A stretch of 47,589 bases of DNA from the IMG/VR virus record IMGVR_UViG_2706794673_000013; one strand, given 5' to 3'. Under the pieces are notes generated by a model. It saw only the letters and a list, made by a program, of their open reading frames with translations, searched no databases and was not told the DNA's origin. The DNA is from a virus (taxonomy: Duplodnaviria > Heunggongvirae > Uroviricota > Caudoviricetes). Both the position numbers and the translations under genes were made by a program. Numbering within the stretch: position 1 is the first letter of the stretch; every line of letters starts with the position of its first letter. Positions 1 to 47,589 of the stretch are shown one piece after another.

Positions 1-1236
1 CTACGATAACCGCGCATTCAACATGGCTACCTGTTCGTCGTTCATGTCATCAATCCACATACCGTAAATTTCATACACCATCTGCGCAGTTTCATGCCCC
101 ATCTGGCTGGCTATAAACGCCGGGTTCGCTCCTGCCGTCAACAGCCAGCAGGCAAAAGTATGCCGCGTATGGTACGGATTACGGCGGCGAATACCAGCAC
201 GTTTTACTGCTGCATTCCATCTCGCACCCAAACTGCTTACCGAGTAATAAGGTTTCTGTTTTCCGTTACACACTCTGGGCATGAAAACAAAATGCAGTTT
301 TTGCTTTTCGGTTCTGCCGTACTCCCGATGATAAAAAGTGATTTCGCTTTTGCGATGATGCCCGGTCAGTTTGTATTGCTCCTTCAGTGCTTCAAGAGCA
401 GGCTGCAGTAGTGTTACCGTCCGGATCCCCGCATTTGTTTTTGGGGGACCGAACATATCCAGTATCGTCAGGTTTCTTCTGACATTCACAACTCCCTTCT
501 CGAAATCCACATCCTCCCACGCCAGAGCAGCCAGTTCCCCGTGACGAAGCCCGGAGTATACGGCAAATTTCCACAAGTTCTGGCTCTGTCCTTTTTCACT
601 TTCCATTAATGCATTGAATTCTGTTTTAGATAACGGGTCAGGCTTTATTCTGTTTCTCTGTAATTTCTTTACTCCTTCAAATGGTTTGGTTGATATAAAT
701 CCCGACTGATACGCAAAACGTAACAACGAACAGAGCAGGGCGATATAGTTATCAACTGTGCGCACGGTTCTTCCTTTTTTGTTGGATCTTGGATTATCCA
801 GGTAAAGCGTTTCTCCATGCAGCAGTTCATTCCGGTAGTTTAAGATATCGCTATAACGAATATGCGATATCGGAGTACTCTCACAAATTATTATCCTGAG
901 TGTTTTTAATTGTGATTTCGTTTTCTTCATTGTGTTTGTTGTTAACTCTGTTTCTTTAATTTTTGTCCAGATATCACAAAGCTCCCCGAACGTTTTTATG
1001 ACCCTCGTTGTCACCATTTTTGCCCCAGTGCTGGACTGGGGAAAACGTCTTAAATACTCAAACTCACCGGAATTGATTTCATGAACTATCAACGCTCTTA
1101 AATTCCCGGCTTTTTTAATGTTACTGTTAGTAACCTCCCAGCCTTTCAATGTTTCCCGACATCGTTTTCCTCGAAACATGAACCAGATGCGAATGTATTT
1201 ACCTCGAATCTCGACACCTGTTGGTAATTTAGACAT
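1..1236 (-). CDS. intR: Phage tyrosine integrase (Rac IntR-like)
   Basis: 411-aa ORF; C-terminal catalytic signature (HTRHTFA ... YEIYG) typical of tyrosine recombinases; stop codon at window positions 1-3; sits next to an excisionase-like gene at the prophage end. Confidence 0.9.
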   Translation of the reverse strand: MSKLPTGVEIRGKYIRIWFMFRGKRCRETLKGWEVTNSNIKKAGNLRALIVHEINSGEFEYLRRFPQSSTGAKMVTTRVIKTFGELCDIWTKIKETELTTNTMKKTKSQLKTLRIIICESTPISHIRYSDILNYRNELLHGETLYLDNPRSNKKGRTVRTVDNYIALLCSLLRFAYQSGFISTKPFEGVKKLQRNRIKPDPLSKTEFNALMESEKGQSQNLWKFAVYSGLRHGELAALAWEDVDFEKGVVNVRRNLTILDMFGPPKTNAGIRTVTLLQPALEALKEQYKLTGHHRKSEITFYHREYGRTEKQKLHFVFMPRVCNGKQKPYYSVSSLGARWNAAVKRAGIRRRNPYHTRHTFACWLLTAGANPAFIASQMGHETAQMVYEIYGMWIDDMNDEQVAMLNARLS

Positions 1237-1237
1237 A

Positions 1238-1453
1238 TCATGAGTCTTTGATAAACTGATTTATCTTTGGATAGTTATACCAGATAATCCCTCGCTTACT
1301 GTCTGGCTTCCCTAAAGGAGATACTCGTTTGAAGTGGAAGCCTTCCACCCAACAGTTCTGGCGGTATGCTTCAATTTGTCTGGCCCCCAGACCAGTGCGA
1401 AGCATCAGGCCGTATTCAACCATCCACTCTTCATTAAAGATTACTTGTGCCAT
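1238..1453 (-). CDS. Excisionase-like small DNA-binding protein (Xis/YdaQ-like)
   Basis: Small ORF immediately upstream of int on the same strand (1-nt spacing); start chosen at internal Met (MAQVIF...) giving about 71 aa; position typical of xis. Confidence 0.65.
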
Positions 1454-1552
1454 CGCATCACCTCTGGCAGGCGCCAATGTTAGACTTAAATTGACGCCCG
1501 ATGTTGATTATTAATAATCAGCTATGAAGTTTTAATTTGAATACAATGCAAT

Positions 1553-1741
1553 TCACGAGGACTGAAGTTTCTCGCAATTAAAATTTATCAGTTTTACTTT
1601 CTGCTCTCTGGAAACGCCTGCTTCTTTTTTACCTGAGAGCATTTTTTCGCATTCTGATTTCGTTAGTTTAGATTTTGAATATCTTGTCCAGTTAGTAGGA
1701 GTGCCACCTTCCTTTTCAATAGTGGCGGTAATTTTATACAT
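1553..1741 (-). CDS. Small hypothetical protein (YdaC-position)
   Basis: 62-aa ORF starting MYKITATIEKEGG; its ATG overlaps the TAA that would end full-length ralR (ATGTATAA arrangement). Confidence 0.5.
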   Translation of the reverse strand: MYKITATIEKEGGTPTNWTRYSKSKLTKSECEKMLSGKKEAGVSREQKVKLINFNCEKLQSS

Positions 1742-1928
1742 GAACACCTCCATTATTATTTCCAGTGGTTCGTTTATTTCATCGTTCGAGTGCTTCTTTT
1801 TCACTTCCACCATAACCGGTTCGGGATTCGCATCCGTTACACTTCGCTCGGTAATATCCTGAAATGGCTTTCACCGTTACTGATGGACAACCACAAAATG
1901 GACATGGTTTAACATTGTCATATCTCAT
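1734..1928 (-). pseudogene. ralR: ralR/lar-like restriction alleviation gene interrupted by an in-frame TGA (codon 50)
   Basis: Minus-strand translation MRYDNVKPCPFCGCPSVTVKAISGYYRAKCNGCESRTGYGGSEKEALER then TGA at 1779-1781, after which the same frame continues NKRTTGNNNGGVHV to TAA at 1734-1736; Cys-rich zinc-ribbon-like N-terminus. Confidence 0.5.
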
Positions 1929-1983
1929 AATTTTTCTCATAAAAATATTTCAAGTTGGCGGTGCATTACACCGCCAGGCTGAA

Positions 1984-2793
1984 TTATTCCTCTGAATTAT
2001 CGATTACACTGTATTCCCCGGTTAATACAGAGGAATCTGCAGGATCGATTGTCAGTGGTTCCTTTTCATCCATTGATACTGCACGCTGGATCTCAATTGA
2101 TACGGGCAGATATTTGAACAGGCGACGAATAGCCGTTTTCTTTGCCATTTCTTCCCAGTGAGTTACCCACGGCCCGTTATTACCAGCTTTACTCTGGCTG
2201 CGCACCAGCTCAATCTGTTTGCGCGTCATAACTTCAAACTGAGTACCTCCGTCTTTCAGTCTTGCGACAGCATAGACGTGGGTAACAGGGGCATCTTCGT
2301 TTTCTCCTGGGCGGTGTATTAACTTTTCATCAAGGCCAAATTCGAAATTAAACTCGTCACCTTCACGGACAACACGGGCTGACAGGCTGGCGATTTGACC
2401 TGAACGGCGAGCCAGATCAATCATGCCGCGATAGCCAATGATTAGCTGAACGTTTTTTTTACCGCTCTTTTCGTTTTTATTACCAAAAGGCAGTAAATAT
2501 GCATGACCGAGGGCGCTACCGGGCTCAAGTCCGAGCTGTGAACACTGTACGATTGCACTGACAAAACTCATAGTGTCACAGTTTCCTAACGCCGGAACTT
2601 TACGAATTTCTGTGGTGGCGATACGGATCATACGTTCAGCCGTCATATGGCGTGGAAGAGCTGCTGCCAGTTGCTCTTTCATTGATGGCTGGTTAATAAA
2701 ACTAATCACGTCGTTATTTTTAATTGCTGCTGGTGCACGGTTTCCCTGAGTTTTTTGCAGATCGGCTTTTGCGATTGGTGGTTGCTTAGTCAT
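1984..2793 (-). CDS. recT: RecT recombinase (single-strand annealing protein)
   Basis: 269-aa product from internal Met ([16 protein letters not shown]...); recognised RecT sequence; start overlaps recE stop. Confidence 0.9.
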
Positions 2794-5386
2794 TTGCATA
2801 TTCCTTAGCCCAGCGGGGCAGTGATAACGTCTTAATAGCTGGCCATTCATCGGTATTGAGGCAGTCAGCCAGGGTTCGCAGATTGCGGTGATATTCCAGC
2901 TGACCTGCCAGTTTTGCTTCTTCGCCCATCATGAAAATTTCAACCGGATAACGTCCGCATTCAATAGTTGTGCTGGCAACCAGAAAAACGAAAGTTGGCT
3001 GCACTCCAAACTGTGCTTCATAACCGTCACTGTAGAATGCATCCTGAACGTGATAGCGGTAGTCGTAATAAGCGGTTTTGAATCGTTGAATATCCGCCGT
3101 AGTTTTCACGTCCATGATCCAGTGAAATTCAGGGATAATTTTGTCCGGACGGCACCGACACAAAATTGCTGTTTCAGGATCTTCCCAGTAAATTGATGAT
3201 TCAGCGTGTCCGGCGCTTTCAACAAGCCATTGCCCCAGCGGCAAAGCCATAACGCTCTGATACATGAGTTCAATTTTCCGGCCTTCTTCGGCAGTGATAA
3301 CCGTTTTTCCTGTGCTTGCGCATTCCCTCAGAAACGCTTTCTCTTCTTCTTTTCCGGAGTTTGTCCGGCGGTTAAATTCAGGTGCTACGATAAAGCGGTT
3401 ACTGAATTCTTCCGGCTCAAGTACCCGGCAGTGGAAAGCGGTTCCTAAATCGAGCGTTTTTGTCTTTGTGGTGTCCACGGGGGCATTTTTACGCCACAAA
3501 TACAGTGCCGGAGTATCAGCAATGTCATCGAGCTGAGACTTACTGACACCGGGACCCGCGTGGTAATTCTCATTCGAAATTCCGTAATAAATACCTGGCT
3601 CTATGTCTTCTACGATTACGGGATCTGCGACTTCGCCAGTTTCATCACTGCAATCGCGATGCGGATCGCTGCCAGCATTCTCATTGTGCGGATGTTCAGC
3701 GCCTTCCATTTCCTCCGGATCATTTTCCTTAGCTTCAACCTGACTCTCTTCATCGAATGTTTCCTGGTATGTTGCGTCGCCCATCACCGCACCACAGTCA
3801 GGGCAGTTATCCCCGCCAGTCTGGCCGCAGGCATTGCAGGCTATTTCCGGTTCCTGTTGCACTACTGGCTCAGGTTGATTCATATCCGGGCTGGTTTTTT
3901 CCGTTTCTGGCTGGTTCTGGTACACACAATCGCGAGTCTGGATCCCCTTTACCCATTTCGGATCGTTCGGGTCGCTAATTCCGTCAACAAATTCACCACG
4001 TGATGCAGCAAGCAATTTATCGGCATCGACAGGATTTTTTGATGGAATGTTTTTCCGGGCTTCATGGAGTTCTGCCCGCAGTTCCTGATATTTCGCATCA
4101 ACAGAATTTACCTGTGACTGAGCATCCAGCGGCTGCGTGTCCTGATGATGTTCAGTTGCGTCCGGTTCCATTGTTTCAGCCTCTCCCTGTTCAACTGCCG
4201 TTGTTCCAGATGGTTGCGGTTTTTCTTCATCATCCTGTTTTCCTTCTTCTGTTACTCGCTGCGGCATCGGGGCAGAGGAGCGACCGCAGGCAATATCCAC
4301 GATTTCCGGATCAGGGTTGGCATGATCGGTTTCAGTCAGTACTTTGTTCAGATATTCAGTGACGTGCGCGGGGATGACCTCGATCCCAATTGGTGCTTCT
4401 TTTACGGACGCAACCACGATGGCGCGGGAATAATCCAGCCCGCCAGGCATGGTGATGAATTTGTCGCGGAAAACAGAAAAGGGCGGTTTATTTTCAGCGA
4501 TAATTTCCTCAATGCGTTTAGCGTGTGCCGGATGAAGGTTATAGATGTCCAGATCCATTGAACGGGCCAGTACGCCAGTGGCTACGTCCCGCGCCAGTGA
4601 CGTCAGATCGTGTACGAAACCTTCGCCGCGATCGGTGAGGTTTCCGCCGCCAGCATTAGCACCGGAAGCCGTGCGAGTGATGTGTGAAACACGATTACCC
4701 TTCATCCACTCTTTTGTCAGCAGTCCTCGATCGGTGTAGTCAGCGTTCAGGTATGCTTCGAAAAAAGCAGTTATCAGTCCCAGGTTTGAATTACCAGGAT
4801 TAGGGAAAACTTTGTCAGTGTCACGAACCAGTTTGTGGAGTTCGCGAATTTCCAGCGGGTCGAGCAGGCTGGTTTTGTGGGAAACAGCCAGGGCAGTAAC
4901 AGCCGGTAGTTCTTCAGCCCGAGCAATGTGTAATGCCTGGAGTCCGTCGCGTGAAACGTGCGTTACCGGTTTTTCGCTGCCGTGTTGAGCAAGCCAACGA
5001 ATGGGCAGTTCCTGGCCAGAAATTGGGAGTAGCATATTCTCCTCAATCTCAGTCATGTCTTCGCCGTTGACGTTGGTATTGCCTTGATAGTGAGCGTTGT
5101 CTGGTGCTGCTCCCGGTTTTAGTTCCCATGTCATGGAGTCTTTGCTGAGTTGATAGCGTTCACTCCAGGTAAAATCGATCTCACCTTCAGCGGGCAGGTC
5201 ATTAACGACAGGAAAATTCGTGGCAACAGCTTTAAAATAGCTGCTCAGTTTTTTACCTGACTTAACGATCAGGTAGTCCAGAGTGGCACAGGTCGATTCA
5301 AAATCGTTGCTTGCCCACAGGACGACGTCAGGTTCACCGGATGATTTTTTCGCTTTCCGTAACAGGAAGAGTGGTTTTGTGCTCAT
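2786..5386 (-). CDS. recE: Exodeoxyribonuclease VIII (RecE)
   Basis: 866-aa ORF immediately upstream of recT on same strand; acidic/low-complexity middle region and C-terminal nuclease domain as in RecE. Confidence 0.9.
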
Positions 5387-5487
5387 TGTTTTTTAACCTC
5401 AACTCAGATTAAAATTCGTTTTGTTCAGTGAATGATCTTGCCGGATACACACTGTTCATAGCCTGCGCCATACGCAGGCTATTTCTT

Positions 5488-5763
5488 TCAGATTTCACCT
5501 TTTAATTTCATTGCAATTAGAGTTGCCAGAAATTCGGCTTTTTTTTCTGCGGGCAGATTCTTTCCGATATGCACCAGGCACATTTTTTTGACACCTTCAT
5601 CAAGTGTTTTTACGTTGCCTGATGGACCATCGATATCAACCACAGTGAATGGGGTTTCTTTATTTTCTGTTTTAATTACGTAGCCAATGCGCTTTCCTTC
5701 CAGATTCACCTCGTGAACAATGTCATCGGTAGTTACAACAGTGGCTTCATAATTGGTAATCAT
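5488..5763 (-). CDS. racC: RacC protein
   Basis: 91-aa product from internal Met (MITNYEATVVTTDDIVHEVNLEGKRIGYVIKTENK...); recognised Rac prophage RacC. Confidence 0.8.
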   Translation of the reverse strand: MITNYEATVVTTDDIVHEVNLEGKRIGYVIKTENKETPFTVVDIDGPSGNVKTLDEGVKKMCLVHIGKNLPAEKKAEFLATLIAMKLKGEI

Positions 5764-5837
5764 GTTTTTCTCCTTAATTAAGGTTGAGCGAATACCTGCC
5801 ATTTCTGGCATAAATTCAGTTTCGAATAGTCAATTAA

Positions 5838-6008
5838 TTAAAGTTCATGTGCCATCTGGTCTTTTTCGGCACAAGCTTCACTGCAATATTTTCTCGGTTC
5901 GTCTTTTGATAAAATCCCGTGCATGAAGTGAAGCATTCTTTCAATAGCTTTGCTTTCTTCAACGTCTTTTTTGCAAAGGTGGTAAGCACATTTTATTTTC
6001 TTAGTCAT
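5838..6008 (-). CDS. ydaE: Small Cys-rich protein YdaE
   Basis: 56-aa ORF below the 60-aa track cut-off, found by manual translation ([56 protein letters not shown]); start ATG overlaps kilR stop (TGATG). Confidence 0.8.
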   Translation of the reverse strand: MTKKIKCAYHLCKKDVEESKAIERMLHFMHGILSKDEPRKYCSEACAEKDQMAHEL

Positions 6009-6229
6009 CACCATGACTCCGCCTTTACAGGTAAACCATCACGACCGAGGAAGACTTTAATCATGCGGTCAGTAATGCATGTTTTTGTGGTCAGGTTACG
6101 AATATATAGTTTTCGCTTTTTAATATTGTTTGCCGAGGCAATATATGTCCGGCCTTCATGAAGAACATAATCGCCAGGAGTCACACACTGACGTGGTATT
6201 TCATCAGTTCCGAAGTGATGTGCAATCAT
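6008..6229 (-). CDS. kilR: KilR cell-division (FtsZ) inhibitor
   Basis: 73-aa product from Met5 of the ORF ([29 protein letters not shown]...); recognised KilR; a start at 6241 is also possible. Confidence 0.85.
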
Positions 6230-6670
6230 AATTATCTCCATTTTTACAAATGAACTTTGTTGATGCGGTGCCTGGTGCCTCCAGGTGACTGCAACCAGTT
6301 AACAATTACAGTCGGCTTTCCCACCCAAACCAATAAGGACTAACATGACTTTTAACTGTGCCACGTGCGCTTAGCCGCATTCACCGCATCACAAAATTCA
6401 CTTTAAAAAGGGCGGACATCAGCCGAACTTCAAGAAAAAAACTGATGCCGCCAGGACTACACACAGCAATGTCGTTATTTACAACCGGAGGCGCACTCCC
6501 ACCATTTAAATTTAACAGACAAGACCGACTCTTTATGGATATCGGAAATGCGCCTTCGTGTTGTGCCCGGTTTTATTTCACCACCTCCGGGCTTCGGTGG
6601 TCTCGGCTATACCCCTACAGCGAGAGCTTGTGTTAACATTTCAATACCCTTACAGTTGAGAGTTATTGAT

Positions 6671-7159
6671 ATGTTGGATGTATTTACTCCATTGTTGAAA
6701 CTTTTTGCTAACGAGCCACTCGAAATACTTATGTATACGATTATCATTTTTGGTCTCACTCTCTGGCTGATACCGAAAGAGTTTACTGTCGCATTCAATG
6801 CTTATACTGAAATACCTTGGCTCTTTCAGATTATCGTTTTTGCCTTTTCTTTCGTGGTCGCCATTTCCTTCTCAAGATTGCGAGCACATATTCAAAAGCA
6901 TTATTCATTACTACCAGAGCAACGAGTATTGCTTCGTTTATCTGAGAAAGAAATCGCTGTATTTAAAGATTTCCTTAAAACAGGAAATCTTATTATCACT
7001 TCTCCTTGCCGTAACCCGGTTATGAAAAAATTAGAACGGAAGGGCATCATTCAACATCAGAGTGATAGCGCAAACTGTTCTTATTATCTCGTCACCGAAA
7101 AATACTCCCATTTTATGAAGTTATTCTGGAACAGCAGGAGTAGACGTTTTAATCGTTAG
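6671..7159 (+). CDS. sieB: Superinfection exclusion protein SieB
   Basis: 162-aa product from internal Met (MLDVFTPLLKLFANEPLEILMYTIIIFGLTLWLIP...), hydrophobic N-terminal segment; recognised SieB. Confidence 0.85.
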   Translation: MLDVFTPLLKLFANEPLEILMYTIIIFGLTLWLIPKEFTVAFNAYTEIPWLFQIIVFAFSFVVAISFSRLRAHIQKHYSLLPEQRVLLRLSEKEIAVFKDFLKTGNLIITSPCRNPVMKKLERKGIIQHQSDSANCSYYLVTEKYSHFMKLFWNSRSRRFNR

Positions 7160-7311
7160 CTTACTGTGTGCTTCTCCAACCATCGGCGCGCACCAGTTTC
7201 GGTTTTAAATGTTTTGCTTTTGGTATACGTCATGGCAGTGAACGTTCCATCCTGGTTGGGGAACACGCCGCACACCAGGGATTCGTTGTTGCCGAGGTCG
7301 ATTTTTTGCAT
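7156..7311 (-). CDS. ydaG: Small protein YdaG
   Basis: 51-aa ORF below track cut-off, found by manual reverse translation (MQKIDLGNNESLVCGVFPNQDGTFTAMTYTKSKTFKTETGARRWLEKHTVS). Confidence 0.75.
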   Translation of the reverse strand: MQKIDLGNNESLVCGVFPNQDGTFTAMTYTKSKTFKTETGARRWLEKHTVS

Positions 7312-7321
7312 TTTGCGAATC

Positions 7322-7456
7322 TCACATCTTGTTGCTGTGTATAGCGACTTCTGCCTGCCAGAGATCCCAGTCGTTGCTGCGTAAAGCCTGCACAGCCTGG
7401 TTGTAAGTGATACCGCAACAATCCATCAAATACTGAACTACTTCGTAATGCACCAT
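7322..7456 (-). CDS. ydaF: Small protein YdaF
   Basis: 44-aa product (MVHYEVVQYLMDCCGITYNQAVQALRSNDWDLWQAEVAIHSNKM) with strong SD AAGGGGAG upstream; first gene of the leftward early operon. Confidence 0.75.
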   Translation of the reverse strand: MVHYEVVQYLMDCCGITYNQAVQALRSNDWDLWQAEVAIHSNKM

Positions 7457-7599
7457 CTTATCTCTCCCCTTAACGCCGGGTGGCGGAACTGAAACCTGCT
7501 GCACTGCAAAATCTGAACCCTGCCGTCATGTTCATACGCCTCGGGCTGGCTACTTAACCCCTGACCACTGCCTGGTAACTCGAAGTATTGCCCTGCGTT

Positions 7600-7690
7600 C
7601 TGTGGGGCGGGGTGGGTTGGTAGGTATATAATGTACTTTGTGTTCATTGATGTAAAGTACTATAAGTACATTTTGTGTGTAAAAAAATGA
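7600..7690 (-). promoter_or_regulatory. Leftward early promoter/operator region (OL-like) with ATGTACT-type repeats
   Basis: Between repressor stop and ydaF start; minus strand shows TTTACA ... ATTATA promoter-like hexamers; motif AATGTACTT and its reverse complement occur (7629-7638, 7664-7675). Confidence 0.4.
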
Positions 7691-7746
7691 GATGGGATAA
7701 AGTGAAGCACAAACCCGGAGGGGGACGCTACCGGATTTATGCTGGT

Positions 7747-8184
7747 TTAAGAGGCTTTTTGTTTTTTCTTTCGTGCTAGCTCTTCGTAAATTGCATTGTA
7801 CTTCTGTTTTTTCTCCTCAAGAGTTTTTAAAAGTTCATCTGTCTCACTGTCAGGGAGCTCGTCCAGAAGGTCAATGATGATTTTTTGTCTTGGATTTAAC
7901 TCCTGATAGAAACGTACCTGTCCACTTTCTTCTGTATCCTCTCCCAAAAGATAGGTTGGTGTTGTTCCAATGAGTGTTGCTAATTCCCTTAATTTCTCTC
8001 GGCGAGGAATTGTTTCGCCATTAAACCATTTGCTAACCGCTTTTGGTGTTAATTTCATTCGACGGGCAATTTCTGCCTGCCTTCCATGTTGTTCATAACC
8101 AGCGTTTTCACAGGCTAGCGCAAGCCTACTGGCGAACTCTTTACGCGCTTTATCTTCATGAACCATAAGTTCAATGATATTCAC
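7747..8184 (-). CDS. XRE-family HTH prophage repressor (RacR-position)
   Basis: 145-aa ORF with an HTH-like segment (...QAEIARRMKLTPKAVSKWFNGETIPRREKL...) and a charged C-terminal tail; divergently transcribed from a Cro-like gene; start could be 8184 or 8163. Confidence 0.7.
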   Translation of the reverse strand: MNIIELMVHEDKARKEFASRLALACENAGYEQHGRQAEIARRMKLTPKAVSKWFNGETIPRREKLRELATLIGTTPTYLLGEDTEESGQVRFYQELNPRQKIIIDLLDELPDSETDELLKTLEEKKQKYNAIYEELARKKKQKAS

Positions 8185-8245
8185 TCTTGAATGTACTGTC
8201 AGTTCTGTTATAGCATGTACTCAAAGTTCACATTGTGAGGGTGAT
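8164..8245. promoter_or_regulatory. Divergent immunity promoter/operator region (OR-like)
   Basis: 82-nt intergenic region between divergent repressor and cro-like genes; TTGAAT (-35-like) and TATAGC (-10-like) on plus strand; ATGTACT motif at about 8191-8197 and 8213-8219. Confidence 0.45.
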
Positions 8246-8500
8246 ATGAACCAGAAAACACTTGAAGATGTAATCAAAACTGTTCGCGTTTCTGTTGTGG
8301 CCGACGTTTGTGGTGTCAGCCAAAGAGCAATCTACAAATGGATGGATAACGGAAAATTGCCTCGCACAGAATATACCGGCGAAACAAATTACGCTGAAAA
8401 AATCGCTCATGCATCAAACGGATTATTTTCTGCTGATGTAATTTTAACTATTGGCAGAAATAAAACTACTACGAAAAAGCTGATGGGAGTTGATTCATGA
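8246..8500 (+). CDS. Cro/YdaS-like small HTH regulator
   Basis: 84-aa product from ATG 8246 preceded by GAGGG; HTH-like segment (VCGVSQRAIYKWMDNGKLP); stop overlaps ydaT start. Confidence 0.6.
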   Translation: MNQKTLEDVIKTVRVSVVADVCGVSQRAIYKWMDNGKLPRTEYTGETNYAEKIAHASNGLFSADVILTIGRNKTTTKKLMGVDS

Positions 8501-8919: not shown

Positions 8920-8931
8920 GCAAAAGTTTCC

Positions 8932-9789: not shown

Positions 9790-9795
9790 CTGACC

Positions 9796-38000: not shown

Positions 38001-38311
38001 TTTATGATTCCCCGCAATTTTTTGCTTTTGCAAAAGGGGCTGGTGTTTTTGGTGAGGCTGGACCGGAAGCCATTATGCCATTAACACGAACTTCCGATGG
38101 TTCTCTTGGTGTCAGAGCTATTAATAGTAAAAGTGGTAATGGAGGCGGAGATATTACCTATGCCCCTGTATACCAAATCACTATTCAAAATGACGGCCAG
38201 AATGGAGAGATTGGCCCTCAGGCAATAAAAGCACTTATGGGGATGGTTGATCAGCGGGTGCAGGGCAATCTGTTAAATATGCGACGTGATGGGGGAATGT
38301 TAAGTGGCTAA
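35078..38311 (+). CDS. Tail tape measure protein (interrupted by N run 36696-36945)
   Basis: 1077-aa ORF (by track) with long coiled-coil-rich N-terminal half; SD AGGAG; C-terminus ...[40 protein letters not shown]. Confidence 0.85.
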
Positions 38312-39227: not shown

Positions 39228-39495
39228 NNNNNNNNNNNNNNNNNNNNNNNNNNNNNNNNNNNNNNNNNNNNNNNNNNNNNNNNNNNNNNNNNNNNNNNNN
39301 NNNNNNNNNNNNNNNNNNNNNNNNNNNNNNNNNNNNNNNNNNNNNNNNNNNNNNNNNNNNNNNNNNNNNNNNNNNNNNNNNNNNNNNNNNNNNNNNNNNN
39401 NNNNNNNNNNNNNNNNNNNNNNNNNNNNNNNNNNNNNNNNNNNNNNNNNNNNNNNNNNNNNNNNNNNNNNNNNNNNNNNNNNNNNNNNNNNNNNN

Positions 39496-39724
39496 TGCGG
39501 AAGGTGGTTATGTGGGCGGTGCCGGAAGTCCGGCGCAGATGCGGCGGGCTGAAGGCATTAATTTTAATCAGAACAATCACGTGGTGATTCAGAACGACGG
39601 TACGAATGGTCTGCCAGGTCCACAGATGATGAAGGCCGTGTATGACATGGCCCGCAAGGGTGCCCGTGATGAAATTCAGACACAGATGCGTGATGGTGGC
39701 CTGTTCTCCGGAGGTGGACGATGA
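39496..39724 (+). other. Fragment encoding a tape-measure (H-like) C-terminal end
   Basis: Post-gap translation AEGGYVGGAGSPAQMRRAEGINFNQNNHVVIQNDGTNGLPGPQMMKAVYDMARKGARDEIQTQMRDGGLFSGGGR parallels the C-terminus of the tape measure ORF at 35078-38311. Confidence 0.4.
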
Positions 39725-40050
39725 AAACCTTCCGCTGGAAAGTGAAACCCGGTATGGATGTGGCTTCGGCCCCTTCTGTAAGAAAGGTGCGCTTTGGTGA
39801 TGGCTATTCCCAGCGAGCGCCTGCCGGGCTGAATGCCAACCTGAAAACGTACAGCGTGACGCTTTCTGTCCCCCGTGAGGAGGCCATGGTACTGGAGTCG
39901 TTTCTGGAAGAGCACGGGGGCTGGAAAGCCTTTCTGTGGACGCCGCCTTATGAGTGGCGGCAGATAAAGGTGACCTGCGCAAAATGGTCGTCGCGGGTCA
40001 GTATGCTGCGTGTTGAGTTCAGCGCAGAGTTTGAACAGGTGGTGAACTGA
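39721..40050 (+). CDS. M: Minor tail protein M (lambda-like)
   Basis: 109-aa ORF MKTFRWKVKPGMDVASAPSVRKVRFGDGYSQRAPAGLNANLKTYSVTLSVPREEA..., near-identical to lambda gpM as recalled. Confidence 0.9.
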   Translation: MKTFRWKVKPGMDVASAPSVRKVRFGDGYSQRAPAGLNANLKTYSVTLSVPREEAMVLESFLEEHGGWKAFLWTPPYEWRQIKVTCAKWSSRVSMLRVEFSAEFEQVVN

Positions 40051-40748
40051 TGCAGGATATCCGGCAGGAAACACTGAATGAATGCACCCGTGCGGAGCAG
40101 TCGGCCAGCGTGGTGCTCTGGGAAATCGATCTGACAGAGGTCGGTGGAGAACGTTATTTTTTCTGTAATGAGCAGAACGAAAAAGGTGAGCCGGTCACCT
40201 GGCAGGGGCGACAGTATCAGCCGTATCCCATTCAGGGGAGTGGTTTTGAACTGAATGGCAAAGGCACCAGTACGCGCCCCACGCTGATGGTTTCTAACCT
40301 GTACGGTATGGTCACCGGGATGGCGGAAGATCTACAGAGTCTGGTCGGCGGAACGGTGGTCCGGCGTAAGGTTTACGCCCGTTTTCTGGATGCGGTGAAC
40401 TTCGTCAACGGAAACAGTGACGCCGATCCGGAGCAGGAGGTGATCAGCCGCTGGCGCATTGAGCAGTGCAGCGAACTGAGCGCGGTGAGTGCCTCTTTTG
40501 TACTGTCCACGCCGACGGAAACAGATGGCGCTGTTTTTCCGGGACGTATCATGCTGGCCAACACCTGCACCTGGACCTATCGCGGCGATGAGTGCGGTTA
40601 TCACGGTCCGGCGGTCGCGGATGAATATGACCAGCCAACGTCCGACATCACGAAGGATAAATGCAGCAAATGCCTGAGTGGCTGTAAGTTTCGCAATAAC
40701 GTCGGCAACTTTGGCGGCTTCCTTTCCATTAACAAACTTTCGCAGTAA
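40050..40748 (+). CDS. L: Minor tail protein L (lambda-like)
   Basis: 232-aa ORF MQDIRQETLNECTRAEQSASVVLWEIDLTEVGGERYFFCNEQNEKGEPVTWQGRQYQPYPIQGSGFELNGKG..., near-identical to lambda gpL; C-terminal Cys cluster. Confidence 0.9.
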   Translation: MQDIRQETLNECTRAEQSASVVLWEIDLTEVGGERYFFCNEQNEKGEPVTWQGRQYQPYPIQGSGFELNGKGTSTRPTLMVSNLYGMVTGMAEDLQSLVGGTVVRRKVYARFLDAVNFVNGNSDADPEQEVISRWRIEQCSELSAVSASFVLSTPTETDGAVFPGRIMLANTCTWTYRGDECGYHGPAVADEYDQPTSDITKDKCSKCLSGCKFRNNVGNFGGFLSINKLSQ

Positions 40749-40753
40749 ATCCC

Positions 40754-41790
40754 ATGACACAGACAGAATCAGCGATTCTGGCGCACGCCCGGCGATGTGC
40801 GCCAGCGGAGTCGTGCGGCTTCGTGGTGAGAACACCGGAGGGGGAAAGATATTTTCCCTGCGTGAATATTTCCGGTGAGCCGGAGGAGTATTTCCGGATG
40901 GCTCCGGAGGACTGGCTGCAGGCAGAGATGCAGGGTGAGATTGTGGCGCTGGTCCACAGCCACCCCGGTGGTCTGCCCTGGCTGAGTGAGGCCGACCGGC
41001 GGCTGCAGGTGCAGAGTGATTTGCCGTGGTGGCTGGTCTGCCGGGGGGCGATTCACAAGTTCCGCTGTGTGCCACATCTTACCGGGCGGCGCTTTGAGCA
41101 CGGGGTGACGGACTGTTACACGCTGTTCCGGGATGCTTACCATCTGGCGGGGATTGAGATGCCGGATTTTCATCGTGAGGATGACTGGTGGCGTCACGGT
41201 CANNNNNNNNNNNNNNNNNNNNNNNNNNNNNNNNNNNNNNNNNNNNNNNNNNNNNNNNNNNNNNNNNNNNNNNNNNNNNNNNNNNNNNNNNNNNNNNNNN
41301 NNNNNNNNNNNNNNNNNNNNNNNNNNNNNNNNNNNNNNNNNNNNNNNNNNNNNNNNNNNNNNNNNNNNNNNNNNNNNNNNNNNNNNNNNNNNNNNNNNNN
41401 NNNNNNNNNNNNNNNNNNNNNNNNNNNNNNNNNNNNNNNNNNNNNNNNNNNNTGCCAGATTTTCATCGTGAGGACGACTGGTGGCGTAATGGTCAGAATC
41501 TCTATCTGGATAATCTGGAGGCTACAGGGCTGTATCAGGTGCCGTTGTCAACGGCGCAGCCGGGCGATGTGCTGCTGTGCTGTTTTGGTTCATCGGTGCC
41601 GAATCATGCCGCCATTTACTGTGGTGACGGCGAGCTGCTGCACCATATTCCTGAACAACTGAGCAAACGAGAGAGGTATACCGACAAATGGCAGCGACGC
41701 ACACACTCCCTCTGGCGTCACCGGGCATGGCACGCATCTGCCTTTACGGGGATTTGCAGCGATTTGGCCGCCGCATCGACCTTCGTGTGA
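40754..41790 (+). CDS. K: Tail assembly protein K (lambda-like; interrupted by N run 41203-41452 with flanking duplicate sequence)
   Basis: MTQTESAILAHARRCAPAESCGFVV... matches lambda gpK; the peptide PDFHREDDWWR(H/N)G is encoded on both sides of the N run, indicating a duplicated or unresolved join. Confidence 0.75.
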
Positions 41791-42335
41791 AAACGGGGGC
41801 CGAAGCCATCCGGGCACTGGCCACACAGCTCCCGGCATTTCGTCAGAAACTGAGCGACGGCTGGTATCAGGTGCGCATTGCCGGGCGTGATGCAGGCGAA
41901 AATGAATTATCTGCCCGTCTTAATGAACCGCTGGCAAATGGTGCCGTGATCCACATCGTTCCGCGTCTGGCGGGTGCCAAAAGTGGCGGTGTGTTTCAGG
42001 CGGTGCTGGGTGCGGCGCTGATTGCGGTGGCATGGTGGAACCCTGTGGGCTGGCTGGGGGCCGCGGCTGTATCGGGTATGTATGCAGCAGGGGCCAGTAT
42101 GATCCTGGGTGGTGTGGCGCAGATGCTGGCACCGAAAGCCAGGACGCCCACGGCAGCCAGTACAGATAACGGCAAACAGAACACGTATTTCTCGTCACTG
42201 GATAACATGGTTGCCCAGGGTAATGTTCTGCCTGTTCTGTACGGGGAAATGCGCGTGGGGTCACGTGTGGTTTCTCAGGAGATCAGCACGGCAGACGAAG
42301 GGGATGGTGGTCAGGTTGTGGTGATTGGTCGCTGA
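41688..42335 (+). CDS. I: Tail assembly protein I (lambda-like)
   Basis: 215-aa ORF MAATHTLPLASPGMARICLYGDLQRFGRRIDLRVKTGAEAIRALATQLPAF..., overlapping end of K as in lambda. Confidence 0.85.
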   Translation: MAATHTLPLASPGMARICLYGDLQRFGRRIDLRVKTGAEAIRALATQLPAFRQKLSDGWYQVRIAGRDAGENELSARLNEPLANGAVIHIVPRLAGAKSGGVFQAVLGAALIAVAWWNPVGWLGAAAVSGMYAAGASMILGGVAQMLAPKARTPTAASTDNGKQNTYFSSLDNMVAQGNVLPVLYGEMRVGSRVVSQEISTADEGDGGQVVVIGR

Positions 42336-42395
42336 TGCAAAATGTTTTATGAGAAACCGCCTGCGGGCGGTTTTGTCGTTTATGGAGCGTGAGGA

Positions 42396-45300
42396 ATGGG
42401 TAAAGGCAGCAGTAAGGGGCATACCCCGCGCGNNNNNNNNNNNNNNNNNNNNNNNNNNNNNNNNNNNNNNNNNNNNNNNNNNNNNNNNNNNNNNNNNNNN
42501 NNNNNNNNNNNNNNNNNNNNNNNNNNNNNNNNNNNNNNNNNNNNNNNNNNNNNNNNNNNNNNNNNNNNNNNNNNNNNNNNNNNNNNNNNNNNNNNNNNNN
42601 NNNNNNNNNNNNNNNNNNNNNNNNNNNNNNNNNNNNNNNNNNNNNNNNNNNNNNNNNNNNNNNNNNNNNNNNNNNNNNNNNNNNNNNNNGGAAAAAGACA
42701 TCACCATTAAGGGCAAAACCACCTCGCAGTATCTGGTCTCGGTGGTGGTGGATAACCTGCCTCCGCGCCCGTTCAGTATCCGGATGCGCAGGATGACACC
42801 GGACAGCACCACAGACCAGCTGCAGAACAAAACGCTCTGGTCGTCATACACCGAAATCATCGATGTGAAACAGTGCTACCCGAACACTGCACTGGTCGGC
42901 GTACAGGTGGACTCGGAGCAGTTCGGCAGCCAGCAGGTGAGTCGTAATTATCATCTTCGCGGGCGCATTCTGCAGGTGCCGTCGAACTATAACCCGCAGA
43001 CGCGACAATACAGCGGTATCTGGGACGGAACGTTAAAACCAGCATACAGCAACAACATGGCCTGGTGTCTGTGGGATATGCTGACCCACCCGCGCTACGG
43101 CATGGGGAAACGTCTTGGTGCGGCGGATGTGGACAAATGGGCGCTGTATGTCATCGGCCAGTACTGCGACCNNNNNNNNNNNNNNNNNNNNNNNNNNNNN
43201 NNNNNNNNNNNNNNNNNNNNNNNNNNNNNNNNNNNNNNNNNNNNNNNNNNNNNNNNNNNNNNNNNNNNNNNNNNNNNNNNNNNNNNNNNNNNNNNNNNNN
43301 NNNNNNNNNNNNNNNNNNNNNNNNNNNNNNNNNNNNNNNNNNNNNNNNNNNNNNNNNNNNNNNNNNNNNNNNNNNNNNNNNNNNNNNNNNNNNNNNNNNN
43401 NNNNNNNNNNNNNNNNNNNNNGCCGTTGAGGTGAACTGGATTGACCCGGATAACGGCTGGGAGACGGCGACAGAGCTTGTGGAGGATACGCAGGCCATTG
43501 CCCGTTACGGTCGTAACGTCACGAAGATGGATGCTTTTGGCTGTACCAGCCGGGGGCAGGCACACCGCGCCGGGCTGTNNNNNNNNNNNNNNNNNNNNNN
43601 NNNNNNNNNNNNNNNNNNNNNNNNNNNNNNNNNNNNNNNNNNNNNNNNNNNNNNNNNNNNNNNNNNNNNNNNNNNNNNNNNNNNNNNNNNNNNNNNNNNN
43701 NNNNNNNNNNNNNNNNNNNNNNNNNNNNNNNNNNNNNNNNNNNNNNNNNNNNNNNNNNNNNNNNNNNNNNNNNNNNNNNNNNNNNNNNNNNNNNNNNNNN
43801 NNNNNNNNNNNNNNNNNNNNNNNNNNNNGAGCCGTGTTCCTGACGGCGTTGCTGAATACAGCGTGTGGGGGCTGAAGCTGCCGACGTTGCGCCAGCGCCT
43901 GTTCCGCTGTGNNNNNNNNNNNNNNNNNNNNNNNNNNNNNNNNNNNNNNNNNNNNNNNNNNNNNNNNNNNNNNNNNNNNNNNNNNNNNNNNNNNNNNNNN
44001 NNNNNNNNNNNNNNNNNNNNNNNNNNNNNNNNNNNNNNNNNNNNNNNNNNNNNNNNNNNNNNNNNNNNNNNNNNNNNNNNNNNNNNNNNNNNNNNNNNNN
44101 NNNNNNNNNNNNNNNNNNNNNNNNNNNNNNNNNNNNNNNNNNNNNNNNNNNNNNNNNNNNNNNNNNNNNNNNNNNNNNNNNNNNNNNNNNNNNNNNNNNN
44201 NNNNNNNNNNNNNNNNNNNNNNNNNNNNNNNNNNNNNNNNNNNNNNNNNNNNNNNNNNNNNNNNNNNNNTTGACCCGGATAACGGCTGGGAGACGGCGAC
44301 AGAGCTTGTGGAGGATACGCAGGCCATTGTCCGTTACGGTCGTAACGTCACGAAGATGGATGCCTTTGGCTGTACCAGCCGGGGGCAGGCACACCGCGCC
44401 GGGCTGTGGCTGATTAAAACGGAACTGCTGGAGACGNNNNNNNNNNNNNNNNNNNNNNNNNNNNNNNNNNNNNNNNNNNNNNNNNNNNNNNNNNNNNNNN
44501 NNNNNNNNNNNNNNNNNNNNNNNNNNNNNNNNNNNNNNNNNNNNNNNNNNNNNNNNNNNNNNNNNNNNNNNNNNNNNNNNNNNNNNNNNNNNNNNNNNNN
44601 NNNNNNNNNNNNNNNNNNNNNNNNNNNNNNNNNNNNNNNNNNNNNNNNNNNNNNNNNNNNNNNNNNNNNNNNNNNNNNNNNNNNNNGTAAAAGTGAGCCG
44701 TGTTCCTGACGGTGTTGCTGAATACAGCGTGTGGGGGCTGAAGCTGCCGACGCTGCACCAGCGATTGTTCCGCTGCGTGAGTATCCGTGAGAACGACGAC
44801 GGCACGTATGCCATCACCGCCGTGCAGCATGTGCCGGAAAAAGAAGCCATCGTGGATAACGGGGCGCACTTTGACGGCGACCAGAGCGGCACGGTGAATG
44901 GTGTCACGCCGCCAGCGGTGCAGCACCTGACTGCCGAAGTCACCGCAGACAGCGGGGAATATCAGGTGCTGGCGCGCTGGGACACGCCGAAGGTGGTGAA
45001 GGGGGTGAGCTTTATGCTTCGCCTGACCGTGGCAGCGGATGACGGCAGTGAGCGGCTGGTCAGCACGGCCCGGACGACGGAAACCACATACCGCTTCACG
45101 CAACTGGCGCTGGGACGGTACACGCTGACAGTCCGGGCGGTAAATGCCTGGGGACAGCAGGGCGATCCGGCGTCGGTATCGTTCAGGATTGCCGCACCGG
45201 TAGCACCGTCGCGGATTGAGCTGACGCCGGGCTATTTTCAGATAACTGCCACGCCGCATCTTGCGGTTTATGATCCGACGGTACAGTTTGAGTTCTGGTT

Positions 45301-46471
45301 CTCGGAAACGCGGATTACCGATATCAGGCAGGTTGAAACCACAGCCCGCTACCTTGGCGCGGGGCTGTACTGGATAGCCGCCAGTATCAATATCAAACCG
45401 GGCCATGATTATTACTTTTATATCCGCAGTGTGAACACCGTTGGCAAATCGGCATTCGTGGAGGCCGTCGGTCGGGCGAGCGATGATGCGGAAGGTTACC
45501 TGGATTTTTTCAAAGGCAAGATAACCGAATCCCATCTCGGTAAAGAGCTGCTGGAAAAAGTTGATCTGACGGAGGATAACGCCAGCAGACTGGATGAGTT
45601 TTCGAAAGAGTGGAAGGACGCTAACGATAAATGGAATGCGATGTGGGGCGTCAAAATTGAGCAGACCAAAGACGGCAAACATTATGTCGCGGGTATTGGC
45701 CTCAGCATGGAGGACACGGAGGAAGGCAAGCTGAGCCAGTTTCTGGTTGCCGCCAATCGTATCGCGTTTATTGACCCGGCAAACGGGAATGAAACGCCGA
45801 TGTTTGTGGCGCAGGGCAACCAGATATTCATGAACGACGTGTTCCTGAAGCGCCTGACAGCCCCCGCCATTACCAGCGGTGGCAGTCCTCCGGTATTTTC
45901 CCTGACATCAGACGGAAAGCTGACCGCTAAAAATGCGGATATCAGTGGTAGTGTGAATGCGAACTCAGGAACGCTCAACAATGTCACGATTAACCAGAAC
46001 TGTACGATTAAGGGCATGCTGGAGGCGACCCAGGTCAGAGGGGATTTCGTTAAAGCTGTATCAAAAGCCTTCCCGAAAAAAGTCGGTACGTGGGGTAACA
46101 CGGAAACACCAGACGGTACGGTTACAGTCACCATCAGCGATGATCATAACTTTGACCGCCAGATTATTATTCCGCCCATTATTTTTAACGGTATAGCGTA
46201 TGACGATCCGGGGAGCGGAAATAACCCGGGAGGCACGCGATACACGGGTTATGGTTTTGAAGTTCGCAAAAACGGCGTATTAATCGCATCCAGAGAAACT
46301 AAAGGTGCCATTCCCGGTAGTTACAGTGCAGTTATTGATATGCCTAGTGGTGGTGGTAGCGTCACTCTGGAGTTTAAGATTTTCCAGAAAGGCAATCAGG
46401 GGGCAGGCAATATCACCGACTGTACGGTGATTGTGACCAAAAAAGCGGCTTCCGGCATCAGTATTCGTTGA
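42396..46471 (+). CDS. J: Tail tip/host specificity protein J (lambda-like N-terminal and central parts; divergent C-terminus; interrupted by six N runs and internal repeats)
   Basis: Starts [12 protein letters not shown] as lambda gpJ; central segments ([14 protein letters not shown]..., ...[26 protein letters not shown]..., ...[21 protein letters not shown]...) match lambda J; last about 170 aa differ from lambda J as recalled. Confidence 0.75.
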
Positions 46472-46493
46472 AATATTTATAACCCCAATAAAT

Positions 46494-46517
46494 GGCGTCA
46501 GGAATGACGCCTTTTTT
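46494..46517 (+). terminator. Intrinsic terminator after J
   Basis: GGCGTCA-GGAA-TGACGCC hairpin followed by TTTTTT. Confidence 0.65.
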
Positions 46518-46541
46518 ATTGCAGAAAAGCGAGAGGTAATT

Positions 46542-47141
46542 ATGCGTAAAGTTTGTGCAGCCATTTTGTCCGCAGCCATTTGCCTGGCCGTATCCGGTGC
46601 GCCTGCATGGGCGTCTGAACATCAGTCCACGCTGAGCGCGGGGTATCTTCATGCCCGGACCAACGTTCCCGGCAGTGATGATCTGAACGGGATTAACGTG
46701 AAATACCGTTATGAGTTTACGGATACGCTGGGGCTGGTGACGTCATTCAGCTATGCAGGAGACAAGAATCGCCAGCTGACCCGTTACAGCGATACCCGCT
46801 GGCATGAAGATTCCGTGCGTAACCGCTGGTTCAGCGTGATGGCGGGGCCGTCTGTGCGCGTGAATGAATGGTTCAGCGCGTATGCGATGGCGGGTGTGGC
46901 TTACAGCCGTGTGTCGACTTTCTCCGGGGATTATCTCCGCGTAACTGACAACAAGGGGAAAACGCACGACGTGCTGACCGGAAGTGATGACGGTCGCCAC
47001 AGCAACACGTCTCTGGCGTGGGGAGCTGGCGTGCAGTTTAACCCGACCGAATCCGTGGCCATTGATATTGCTTATGAAGGCTCCGGCAGTGGCGACTGGC
47101 GCACTGACGGTTTCATCGTGGGTGTCGGTTATAAGTTCTGA
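46542..47141 (+). CDS. lom: Outer membrane protein Lom (Ail/Lom family)
   Basis: 199-aa ORF with signal peptide (MRKVCAAILSAAICLAVSGAPAWA) and beta-barrel pattern ending ...GFIVGVGYKF; matches lambda Lom. Confidence 0.9.
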   Translation: MRKVCAAILSAAICLAVSGAPAWASEHQSTLSAGYLHARTNVPGSDDLNGINVKYRYEFTDTLGLVTSFSYAGDKNRQLTRYSDTRWHEDSVRNRWFSVMAGPSVRVNEWFSAYAMAGVAYSRVSTFSGDYLRVTDNKGKTHDVLTGSDDGRHSNTSLAWGAGVQFNPTESVAIDIAYEGSGSGDWRTDGFIVGVGYKF

Positions 47142-47177
47142 TTAGCCAGGTAACACAGTGTTATGACAGCCCGCCGG

Positions 47178-47205
47178 TTCAGGCGGGCTTTTTTGTGGGG
47201 TGAAT
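47178..47205 (+). terminator. Intrinsic terminator after lom
   Basis: AGCCCGCC-GGTTCA-GGCGGGCT hairpin followed by TTTTTT. Confidence 0.65.
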
Positions 47206-47215
47206 ATGGCAGTAA

Positions 47216-47589
47216 AGATTTCAGGTGTACTGAAAGACGGCACAGGAAAACCGGTACAGAACTGCACAATCCAGCTGAAAGCAAAACGTAACAGCACCAC
47301 GGTGGTGGTGAACACGCTGGCCTCAGAAAATCCGGATGAAGCCGGGCGTTACAGCATGGACGTTGAGTACGGTCAGTACAGCGTTATTCTGTTGGTGGAA
47401 GGATTCCCGCCGTCACATGCCGGGACCATCACCGTGTATGAAGATTCCCGACCCGGTACGCTGAATGATTTTCTCGGTGCCATGACGGAGGATGATGCCC
47501 GTCCGGAGGCTCTGCGCCGTTTTGAACTGATGGTGGAAGAGGTGGCGCGTAACGCGTCCGCGGTGGCACAGAACACGGCAGCCGCGAAG
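47216..47589 (+). CDS. stf: Side tail fibre protein Stf, N-terminal part (truncated by window end)
   Basis: MAVKISGVLKDGTGKPVQNCTIQLKAKRNSTTVVVNTLASENPDEAGRYSMDVEYGQYSVILLVEGFPPSHAGTITVYEDS... matches the N-terminus of lambda Stf; no stop before the window ends. Confidence 0.8.

Follow-up and report, generated by a model that had tools for sequence, protein, structure and literature searches.

A probable full-length member of the Rac prophage lineage of Escherichia coli, with a non-lambda head and a lambda-type tail tip

The stretch of DNA analyzed here, IMG/VR record IMGVR_UViG_2706794673_000013 (47,589 bases in total; hereafter the window), carries the genes of a lambdoid prophage in the order int-xis, recombination, immunity, replication, nin-Q, lysis, head, tail and side fibers. 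An earlier reading made from the letters of the window (hereafter the sequence-only reading) had described a Rac-like prophage of mosaic construction with a full set of morphogenesis genes. Based on comparisons with complete bacterial genomes, phage lambda and the Rac prophage carried by Escherichia coli K-12, we believe that the window very probably holds ~47 kb, counted from the left end, of a temperate lambdoid siphovirus prophage of ~52 kb that occupies the 5' end of ttcA, where Rac itself attaches, and that this prophage represents at full length the lineage behind the K-12 Rac remnant.

Location of the element and its twin in NCTC10444

In a megablast search of 5,426 complete E. coli genomes, window positions 1-24000 were best matched, with 100% identity, by the NCTC10444 chromosome (NZ_LR134092.1). 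The matching prophage (about 2711392-2763901; 52.5 kb from attL to attR), to which we refer as the twin, is 99.95-100% identical to window 1-39227, and a base-by-base comparison over this range identified 13 base differences, none of which is in the frame of a structural gene. The annotation of the stretch in NCTC10444 runs intR, xisR, ralR, recT, recE, racC, ydaE, kilR, sieB, ydaF and on through trkG, terminase, portal, capsid, tail, gpJ, lom and tail fiber to tfaR, with ttcA directly beside intR at the left. The sequence-only reading had proposed that the att sites be sought beyond the integrase end, and both were located in the twin as a 26-bp core in ttcA at either end of the prophage (the left core at 7900-7925 of locus L001), with one mismatch between attL and attR. 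The sites themselves and tfa are all outside the window, whose base 1 is the final base of the intR stop codon, ~76-100 bp from attL, and whose right end falls 384 bp into the side tail fiber gene stf.

Such elements are widespread. At least 80% of window 1-24000 is present in one place in 83 of the complete genomes, and at least 80% of window 24001-47589 in 631 of them; near-identical copies come from calf, chicken, swine, human and wastewater strains. As a side observation, the iron/manganese transporter operon sitABCD lies within the borders of the NCTC10444 prophage, between tfaR and attR (L002 33595-37429), where K-12 has pinR-ynaE-ynaM.

Left arm, immunity and replication genes

The left end of the window is occupied, on the minus strand, by the tyrosine integrase gene intR (1-1236; the product is 98.8% identical in amino acid sequence to K-12 IntR, and the twin gene is called intR by the Prokaryotic Genome Annotation Pipeline, PGAP), by the excisionase gene xisR, an rcbA-like DUF1187 gene and the toxin gene ralR (together 1241-1928; 98-100% amino acid identity to K-12), and by recT and a full-length recE of 866 codons (1984-5386; 98.5 and 99.2%, respectively). 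The small RNA (sRNA) RalA is encoded antisense to ralR on the plus strand (1557-1735; Rfam RF02694, 225 bits). These are followed at 5488-7456 by racC, ydaE and kilR (minus), sieB (plus, 6671-7159), and ydaF and ydaG (minus), whose products are 97.7-100% identical to their K-12 counterparts, so that the left arm recE-recT-ralR/RalA-racC-ydaE-kilR-sieB-ydaF-ydaG is kept in Rac order.

The immunity region (7623-8490, both strands) has no match in K-12 and is of the type found in Sp10, a prophage of E. coli O157 Sakai, to which window 1-8917, immunity region included, is 99.2% identical in nucleotide sequence. It encodes a helix-turn-helix (HTH) repressor of 139/145 residues in which Pfam identified an HTH domain only (7747-8166, minus) and a Cro-like HTH protein (8246-8500, plus), and a tblastn search of the window found no counterpart of RacR or YdaS. 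The Sp10-type genes thus stand in place of racR/ydaS and, because immunity swaps are usual among lambdoid relatives, the element would be heteroimmune to K-12 Rac rather than unrelated to it.

The rightward early genes at 8497-11758 (plus) comprise ydaT (CII-like), ydaU, ydaV (a DnaC-type loader), a full-length DUF1627 gene and a ren-like DUF977 gene; the products of ydaT-ydaU-ydaV, and that of the more distant trkG, are 99.2-99.6% identical to those of K-12. A second group, at 15721-17149 (plus), consists of a DUF1367 gene, a YbcO-like DUF1364 gene and a gene for a DUF1133 Q-like late antiterminator (phrog_753, 2e-79).

Relationship to the Rac remnant of K-12

The early region had been taken for the Rac gene set, and this is borne out by the proteins: every protein of K-12 Rac other than RacR and YdaS, including all of those named (IntR, XisR, RcbA, RalR, RecT, RecE, RacC, YdaE, KilR, SieB, YdaF, YdaG, YdaT, YdaU, YdaV, and TrkG), is encoded in the window at 95-100% amino acid identity. 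Alignment against K-12 Rac (NC_000913.3 1411899-1434958) likewise agrees with the proposal that the element is a full-size relative of Rac, as the two share six colinear blocks with nucleotide identities of 98.3-99.9%. The blocks correspond to window 1-7622 (98.7%), 8491-11014 (98.3%), 20149-22579 (99.3%), 34253-36012 (99.9%), 46744-46957 (98.6%), and 46952-47589 (99.2%), and cover intR to ydaG, ydaT to ydaW, rzoR, trkG, ynaK, ydaY, ynaA, lomR, and stfR. The late remnants of K-12 (ynaK, ydaY, ynaA, lomR, stfR) are therein colinear with parts of full genes of the element and 98.6-99.9% identical to them.

As this alignment shows, K-12 Rac is the present element minus three simple deletions, plus an IS5 in lom, plus a different repressor/cro pair. 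Each deletion junction has 2 bp of microhomology. The first deletion (window 11015-20148, ~9.1 kb; junction 11014/20149, microhomology TA) removed cargo, nin-type genes, Q, holin and lysozyme; the second (window 22580-34252, ~11.7 kb; junction 22579/34253, AA) removed the C-terminus of a ParB-like protein, a TAGT-family glycosyltransferase and the whole of the head, neck and tube; and the third (window 36013-46743; junction 36012/46744, CA) removed most of the tape measure and M-L-K-I-J, its apparent length of ~10.7 kb being inflated by extra material at the right end of the window. The IS5 in K-12 lom is at a site matching window 46952-46957.

Several K-12 open reading frames (ORFs) are chimeras formed at these junctions. 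The ydaW ORF consists of 151 codons of the DUF1627 gene and 37 codons in the Rz region, ynaK of the first 86 codons of the ParB-like gene (262 residues in the element), ydaY of the final 116 codons of the gene for tail chaperone G (100% amino acid identity), and ynaA of 312 codons of the tape-measure gene and 31 codons of lom. The element can accordingly be used as a reference for reading K-12 Rac, in which ~30 kb has been lost in three microhomology-joined deletions.

Head, neck and tail genes

A complete set of terminase, portal, capsid and tail genes had been noted in the element, and such a set was assigned by Pfam and PHROGs and is annotated as open ORFs in the twin. All of the following genes are on the plus strand. 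The head module (24017-31434), which includes ORFs of 69 and 58 codons, encodes a small terminase subunit (TerS) of 364 residues (24230-25324; PF03592, phrog_51), a large terminase subunit (TerL; 25305-26606; PF03237 and PF17289), a DUF4055 portal protein (26609-28015; PF13264, phrog_145), a Mu-F-like head morphogenesis protein (27999-29111; PF04233), a DUF6651 scaffold protein (29216-29977; PF20356, phrog_206; interrupted by a run of undetermined bases, or N-run, at 29401-29650), and a major capsid protein of the P22 coat family (30076-31215; PF11651, phrog_283). The head-tail adaptor, head closure, tail completion, terminator and tube genes follow at 31438-34094 (PHROGs 493, 161, 169, 179, and 290), with N-runs in the tail terminator (32594-33071; N-run 32730-33057) and the tail tube (33098-34094; N-run 33212-33488).

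The tail assembly chaperone G and its T-like extension (34143-34912; phrog_313, phrog_1189) are linked by a slippery site, A AAA AAG, at 34590-34596 near the end of G, from which the -1 frame enters the T-like ORF ending at 34912; the programmed G/GT frameshift typical of long-tailed phages is thus preserved. The gene for a tape measure of 1077 residues and M (38304-38642) occupy 35078-38642, with an N-run at 36696-36945. Beyond L and K, whose disorder in the window is described below, are the genes for tail assembly protein I (41787-42335) and host-specificity protein J (42396-46471, with five N-runs), an intact lom (46542-47141) and the first 384 bp of stf (47206-47589). In the twin, PGAP annotates L, K (a C40 peptidase), I, J, Lom, Stf, and TfaR.

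Mosaic relationship to phage lambda

The sequence-only reading had proposed that the head is not lambda-like and that the tail tip is. The comparison with phage lambda (J02459) was run on the complete NCTC10444 prophage, attL to attR, and upholds this proposal. Only three nucleotide matches to lambda were found: L-K-I-J at 92.4% over 5,072 bp, stf/tfa at 80-87%, and Rz at 94%. In amino acid sequence the identities to lambda are 27% for H, 42% for M, 94% for L, 96% for K, 80% for I, 88% for J, 44% for Lom, 85% for the N-terminus of Stf and 94% for Tfa, whereas lambda Nu1, A, W, B, C, D, E, FI, FII, Z, U, V, G, and T had no tblastn match in the twin at E<1e-3 (Nu3, being the C-terminal part of C, was not a separate query). 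At the sequence level, then, the head, neck, tube and chaperones are unrelated to those of lambda and the tail tip is close to that of lambda, so that the non-lambda portion includes a tail shaft and chaperones, beyond the head alone for which it had been claimed. The element further differs from lambda in having RecET instead of Red and a DnaC-type loader; its Q belongs to another family, its large terminase domain is of the T4/P22 type, and it integrates at another site. A second layer of mosaicism is apparent in the alignments, in that Sp10 is matched by the left arm with its immunity genes, and the K-12 Rac remnants by the rest.

Proposed life cycle

Taking the gene families together with the biology of lambda, Rac and Sp10, we propose the following life cycle. 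IntR and XisR would integrate and excise the element at the 26-bp core in ttcA, and the HTH repressor would hold lysogeny, opposed by the Cro-like protein and by YdaT, which has been described as the equivalent of CII (PMC5917428). Genome replication would depend on YdaU and the DnaC-type YdaV and recombination on RecE/RecT, KilR would block FtsZ, and SieB and the cargo genes may exclude competing phages or act on the host. The DUF1133 Q-like antiterminator would then open a single late operon with the predicted order holin-lysozyme-spanins, trkG, ParB-like/TAGT, terminase, the portal/MuF/scaffold/P22-coat-family head, the non-lambda neck and tube, the G/GT chaperone, the tape measure, the lambda-type tip and the side fibers. 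Packaging may be by the headful rather than from cos, as the T4/P22-type terminase domains suggest, and the lambda-type J and Stf/Tfa would set the host range.

Integrity of the element and alternative explanations

The element had also been described as apparently intact. In the twin, the gene set is open and both att sites are present; in the window, N-runs interrupt seven structural genes and the right end is disordered. The word intact would accordingly refer to the open reading frames of the twin and not to particle production. A number of observations weigh against reading the window as an intact phage with the life cycle outlined above. The window contains 13 N-runs (3,487 N in total), including those inside the scaffold, terminator, tube, tape measure, L, K, and J genes. 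For N-runs whose flanks are ~100% identical to NCTC10444, the lengths in the window and in that genome are 256/245, 243/242, 250/253, 328/243, 277/243, and 250/250, and the runs of 328 and 277 break the frames of the terminator and the tube. Since the lengths differ from those of the reference, the sequence of the window alone does not allow the seven interrupted ORFs to be called intact. We had considered that the N-runs were one-for-one masks and rejected this, as the lengths are off by +85, +34, +11, +1, and -3, two of these being frame-breaking.

Further points of this kind concern the order of the right end, the repressor and the packaging mode. Window 39228-44686 contains serial allelic duplicates and is not colinear with any reference. 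The repressor has no Peptidase_S24 or other self-cleavage domain in Pfam; Sp10, which has the same type of repressor, was found to transfer, though no particles were visible (PMC2669165); and the single pointer to headful packaging is the family of TerL (PF03237/PF17289), which suggests it.

A disordered stretch occupies 38642-41790 (plus), where a first copy of L, the end of a tape-measure gene, a second M, a second L and K follow one another. The first L (38642-39227) is 100% identical to NCTC10444 and is cut by the N-run at 39228-39495; next in order are another tape-measure gene, represented by its 3' end (39496-39724), the second M (39721-40050), the second L (40050-40748) and K (40754-41790), in which the N-run at 41203-41452 is flanked by a 43-bp allelic overlap. 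Window 38620-39227 is 90% identical to 40028-40635, and 39496-41202 is matched in a single piece, at 98.7%, by tail genes of other lambdoid prophages. Two allelic repeats are found in J, 43441-43578 with 44270-44407 (98.6% identical) and 43829-43909 with 44695-44775, and the N-runs of this region include 43579-43828 and 43912-44269. The NCTC10444 tail tip, in contrast, has none of these duplicates, and its identity to the window is 93.6-99.2% per piece (1-7% different). The order of window 38000-47589 is absent from the 5,426 complete genomes, the best place covering 75% of it, in 7.2 kb as against 9.6 kb. The arrangement is also absent from all 71 IMG/VR loci that contain the exact 114-base pattern of window 39496-39609; two loci of one IMG/VR contig, L063 and L077, are 99.1-99.9% identical to the window without being the same sequence. 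A search of genome contigs for this pattern gave no match.

Because N-runs cover every duplicate junction and the two copies are in each case different alleles, the duplicates at the right end are probably an artifact of assembly, scaffolding or masking that mixed tail-tip alleles of co-resident prophages. They could instead be real rearrangements in the source strain, whose copy of the element would then be tail-defective: the duplicate pieces do occur in the window sequence, and the N-free draft contig that holds L063 has a similar allelic tandem duplication of 479 bp in K. We consider this improbable. Not only is each junction hidden under an N-run, but N-run lengths are wrong even between flanks that are 100% identical to the reference, the copies are 90-98.6% identical and hence allelic, and the arrangement was found in 0 of 5,426 complete genomes; as for L063, its query spans 1,122 bp, and not 1,601 bp, in the 12 best-matching complete genomes, which therefore have no duplication in K. 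With the right 8 kb of the window mixing alleles that best match different prophages, it might also be supposed that the head/tail mosaic as a whole is an assembly chimera of two different prophages. That supposition is most improbable and is refuted by the complete genomes: the NCTC10444 chromosome has the non-lambda head and the lambda-type L-K-I-J-Lom-Stf-Tfa uninterrupted from attL to attR, the same combination is found in many other complete genomes, and the K-12 Rac remnants ydaY, ynaA, lomR, and stfR are in the same order. The mosaic is thus real and not an effect of assembly, because both of its parts are in one contiguous prophage of a complete genome. For users of the window, the masked and disordered right end is a practical warning.

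Another explanation accepts the gene set as complete and holds that the element is functionally cryptic, so that it may excise and yet yield few or no infectious particles, like many lambdoid prophages that look intact. This would be in keeping with the lack of a self-cleavage domain in the repressor and with the behavior of Sp10, which has its leftmost 8.9 kb, immunity genes included, in common with the element and was reported not to be inducible by mitomycin C, to excise spontaneously and to be transferred to K-12 at low frequency, integrating at the Rac attR (PMC2669165). In the twin, moreover, a tolA-like fragment and ynaK are called pseudogenes by PGAP. Conversely, all morphogenesis, lysis, replication and integration ORFs of the twin are open, the supposed ynaK pseudogene is a complete ORF of 262 codons whose product matches phrog_620 from end to end, the near-identical copies from varied hosts and sources fit recent horizontal spread, and Sp10 does transfer. 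We regard a cryptic element as somewhat unlikely, while giving it serious weight. The sequence-only reading had suggested mitomycin C induction as a check; this would probably be a weak and uninformative test here, because the repressor is HTH-only without an S24 domain and is of the same type as that of the non-inducible Sp10.

Known relatives

The identification of the element as a full-size Rac relative is correct and is also already known in kind, as such prophages have been published and are common in wild E. coli. Sp10 of O157:H7 Sakai and CP-933R of EDL933 are described Rac-like prophages in ttcA, and Sp10 resembles the element in its site, its full size and its possession of all morphogenesis functions (PMC4632033, PMC2669165). 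Sp10 and the window are ~90-91% identical in the replication and nin/Q regions, and the late region of Sp10 differs, with an HNH DNase, a 187-residue TerS, a 553-residue TerL, a head of the prohead-protease type, tRNA genes and no trkG. "Full-sized Rac-like prophages" that encode LT-II toxins have also been described (Jobling letter, PMC5917428). One LT-II-encoding prophage, Rac-SA53 (KU052037), shares intR, recET, ydaU and other early genes with the window, matching 37% of window 1-22300 at 92%, whereas only 6% of the head region is matched, within terS only, and toxin cargo takes the place of trkG.

The head module is shared by the GenBank records of Salmonella phage SPF_0923 and of vB_EcoS-666R9, 673R7, 613R10, and 683R6, with nucleotide identities to the window of 99.3-99.6%; the four vB_EcoS records, which are computational prophage predictions (bioRxiv 10.1101/2022.06.29.498070), also match 64-69% of the early region at 96.7-97.8%. 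The 683R6 element differs from the window in having RacR/YdaS immunity and tRNAs downstream of Q, and its cargo genes encode an S8 peptidase and an AAA protein. Given these precedents, the practical value of the window lies in the warning about its right end, in a map of three variable cargo slots and in the pair of ParB-like and TAGT genes.

The ParB-like/TAGT gene pair

Two plus-strand genes that overlap by 8 bases are found just upstream of terS. The first (22326-23114; PF02195, phrog_620) encodes a ParB_N-domain protein of 262 residues, and the second (23107-24039) a TAGT-family glycosyltransferase of 310 residues (PF20691, 3.7e-34, 118.9 bits against a cut-off of 27.5; phrog_842). The TAGT motifs DDDY, QGGD, RKAMN, and NEDV are invariant in seven distant homologs, and a conserved acidic motif of the DxD type is present. 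The family is large, with at least 8,000 matches, and homologs of 40-47% amino acid identity are encoded by phages of Nocardia, Vibrio, and Lactobacillus and by the haloarchaeal virus HHTV-2. Tailed viruses that infect Enterobacterales, Vibrio, Lactobacillus, Nocardia, and a haloarchaeon keep the pair as such, with amino acid identities of 33-72%, and for the most part directly before the terminase genes. A homologous ParB-like gene was directly upstream of the TAGT gene in every context inspected, the end of the ParB-like ORF being at most 60 bp from the TAGT start in 35 of 36 diverse IMG/VR loci, and a recognizable large terminase gene was 0.4-1.9 kb downstream of TAGT in at least 16 of 33 loci.

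Neither the annotated coding sequences of the twin nor the Pfam and PHROGs scans included a TET/5mYOX, a methylase, a dCMP/dUMP hydroxymethylase, a thymidylate-synthase-like protein or an alpha/beta-glucosyltransferase as a partner. As the twin prophage has no enzyme that would make a 5-hydroxymethylcytosine (5hmC) or 5-hydroxymethyluracil acceptor, the pair should not be classed as a known 5hmC-glucosylation pathway. Sequence searches of the PDB and NCBIfam gave nothing useful for the TAGT protein. Solitary TAGT homologs of unknown function have been noted (PMC13216743), as have ParB-like and terminase neighbors of viral DNA glycosyltransferases (bioRxiv 10.1101/2023.12.21.572611), and the animal TAGT homolog GREB1 has been reported to glycosylate a protein (PMC7968844). 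A tentative and rather doubtful proposal is that the ParB-NTPase-fold protein, with its conserved C-terminal domain, and the GT-A TAGT protein might form an uncharacterized glycosylation system whose target, modified while packaging takes place or ahead of it, would be the phage DNA or else a protein of the packaging machinery or of the host. The pair is the best side lead from this analysis and may merit experiment.

Cargo slots and lysis genes

Three slots vary between the element and its relatives, namely one that follows the ren-like DUF977 gene, one that separates Q from holin, and one that separates the lysis genes from those for packaging. The first slot of the window (11957-14895, both strands) holds a pair of low-GC genes and a DUF1971 gene; in 683R6 the AAA protein and S8 peptidase genes are found there and in Sp10 a methylase gene and others. 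The low-GC pair (GC content of 0.365-0.397) encodes proteins that belong to PHROGs of unknown function. The product of the first gene (11957-12919) contains an RNHLVH motif of the HEPN Rx4H type and has a weak HEPN/RES-NTD1 match under the Pfam cut-off, that of the second (12935-13936) has a weak match to GNAT, and neither had a PADLOC, NCBIfam or useful PDB sequence match. We consider the pair candidate exclusion or abortive-infection cargo. The DUF1971 gene (14557-14895), whose product resembles the N-terminal domain of TehB, is on the minus strand inside the rightward early region and is likely to be independently transcribed cargo.

At the second slot, a match to the sRNA STnc100 (17897-18083, plus; Rfam, 86.6 bits against a gathering score of 47) is situated 3' of the Q-like gene, at the position of a late-promoter leader. 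Between Q and holin are two tandem plus-strand ORFs with a TolA C-terminal domain (PF06519; 18194-18622, 2e-23, and 18794-19168, 1e-14), the first of which is the one called a tolA pseudogene by PGAP in the twin; 683R6 and Sp10 have tRNA genes in this slot, while no tRNA genes were found anywhere in the window. It may be speculated that the products of the TolA-like ORFs serve to decoy TolA-dependent colicins or filamentous phages. PADLOC gave no match for these ORFs, for DUF1971 or for TAGT. The twin sequence under the first two masks of the window (L001 23063-23709) is AT-rich intergenic DNA with no convincing ORF and no Rfam family. In other lambdoid prophages, the position between Q and holin carries tRNAs or toxins.

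The lysis cassette (19420-20593, plus) consists of the holin gene essD, the lysozyme gene rrrD and a gene for an Rz-like spanin, the Rz match to lambda reported above; rzoR (20349-20534, plus; RzoR 100% identical in amino acid sequence) is embedded in the spanin gene. The third slot, between the lysis and packaging genes, is occupied by the potassium transporter gene trkG (20731-22188, plus; product 99.6% identical to K-12 TrkG) as cargo in the window and in K-12, and by LT-II-like toxin genes in a Yersinia relative. In that relative, the Yersinia contig JBLWET010000969.1 (L159 2180-3332), the genes for LT-II-like enterotoxin A and B in the trkG slot accompany the same ParB-like/TAGT pair and head module.

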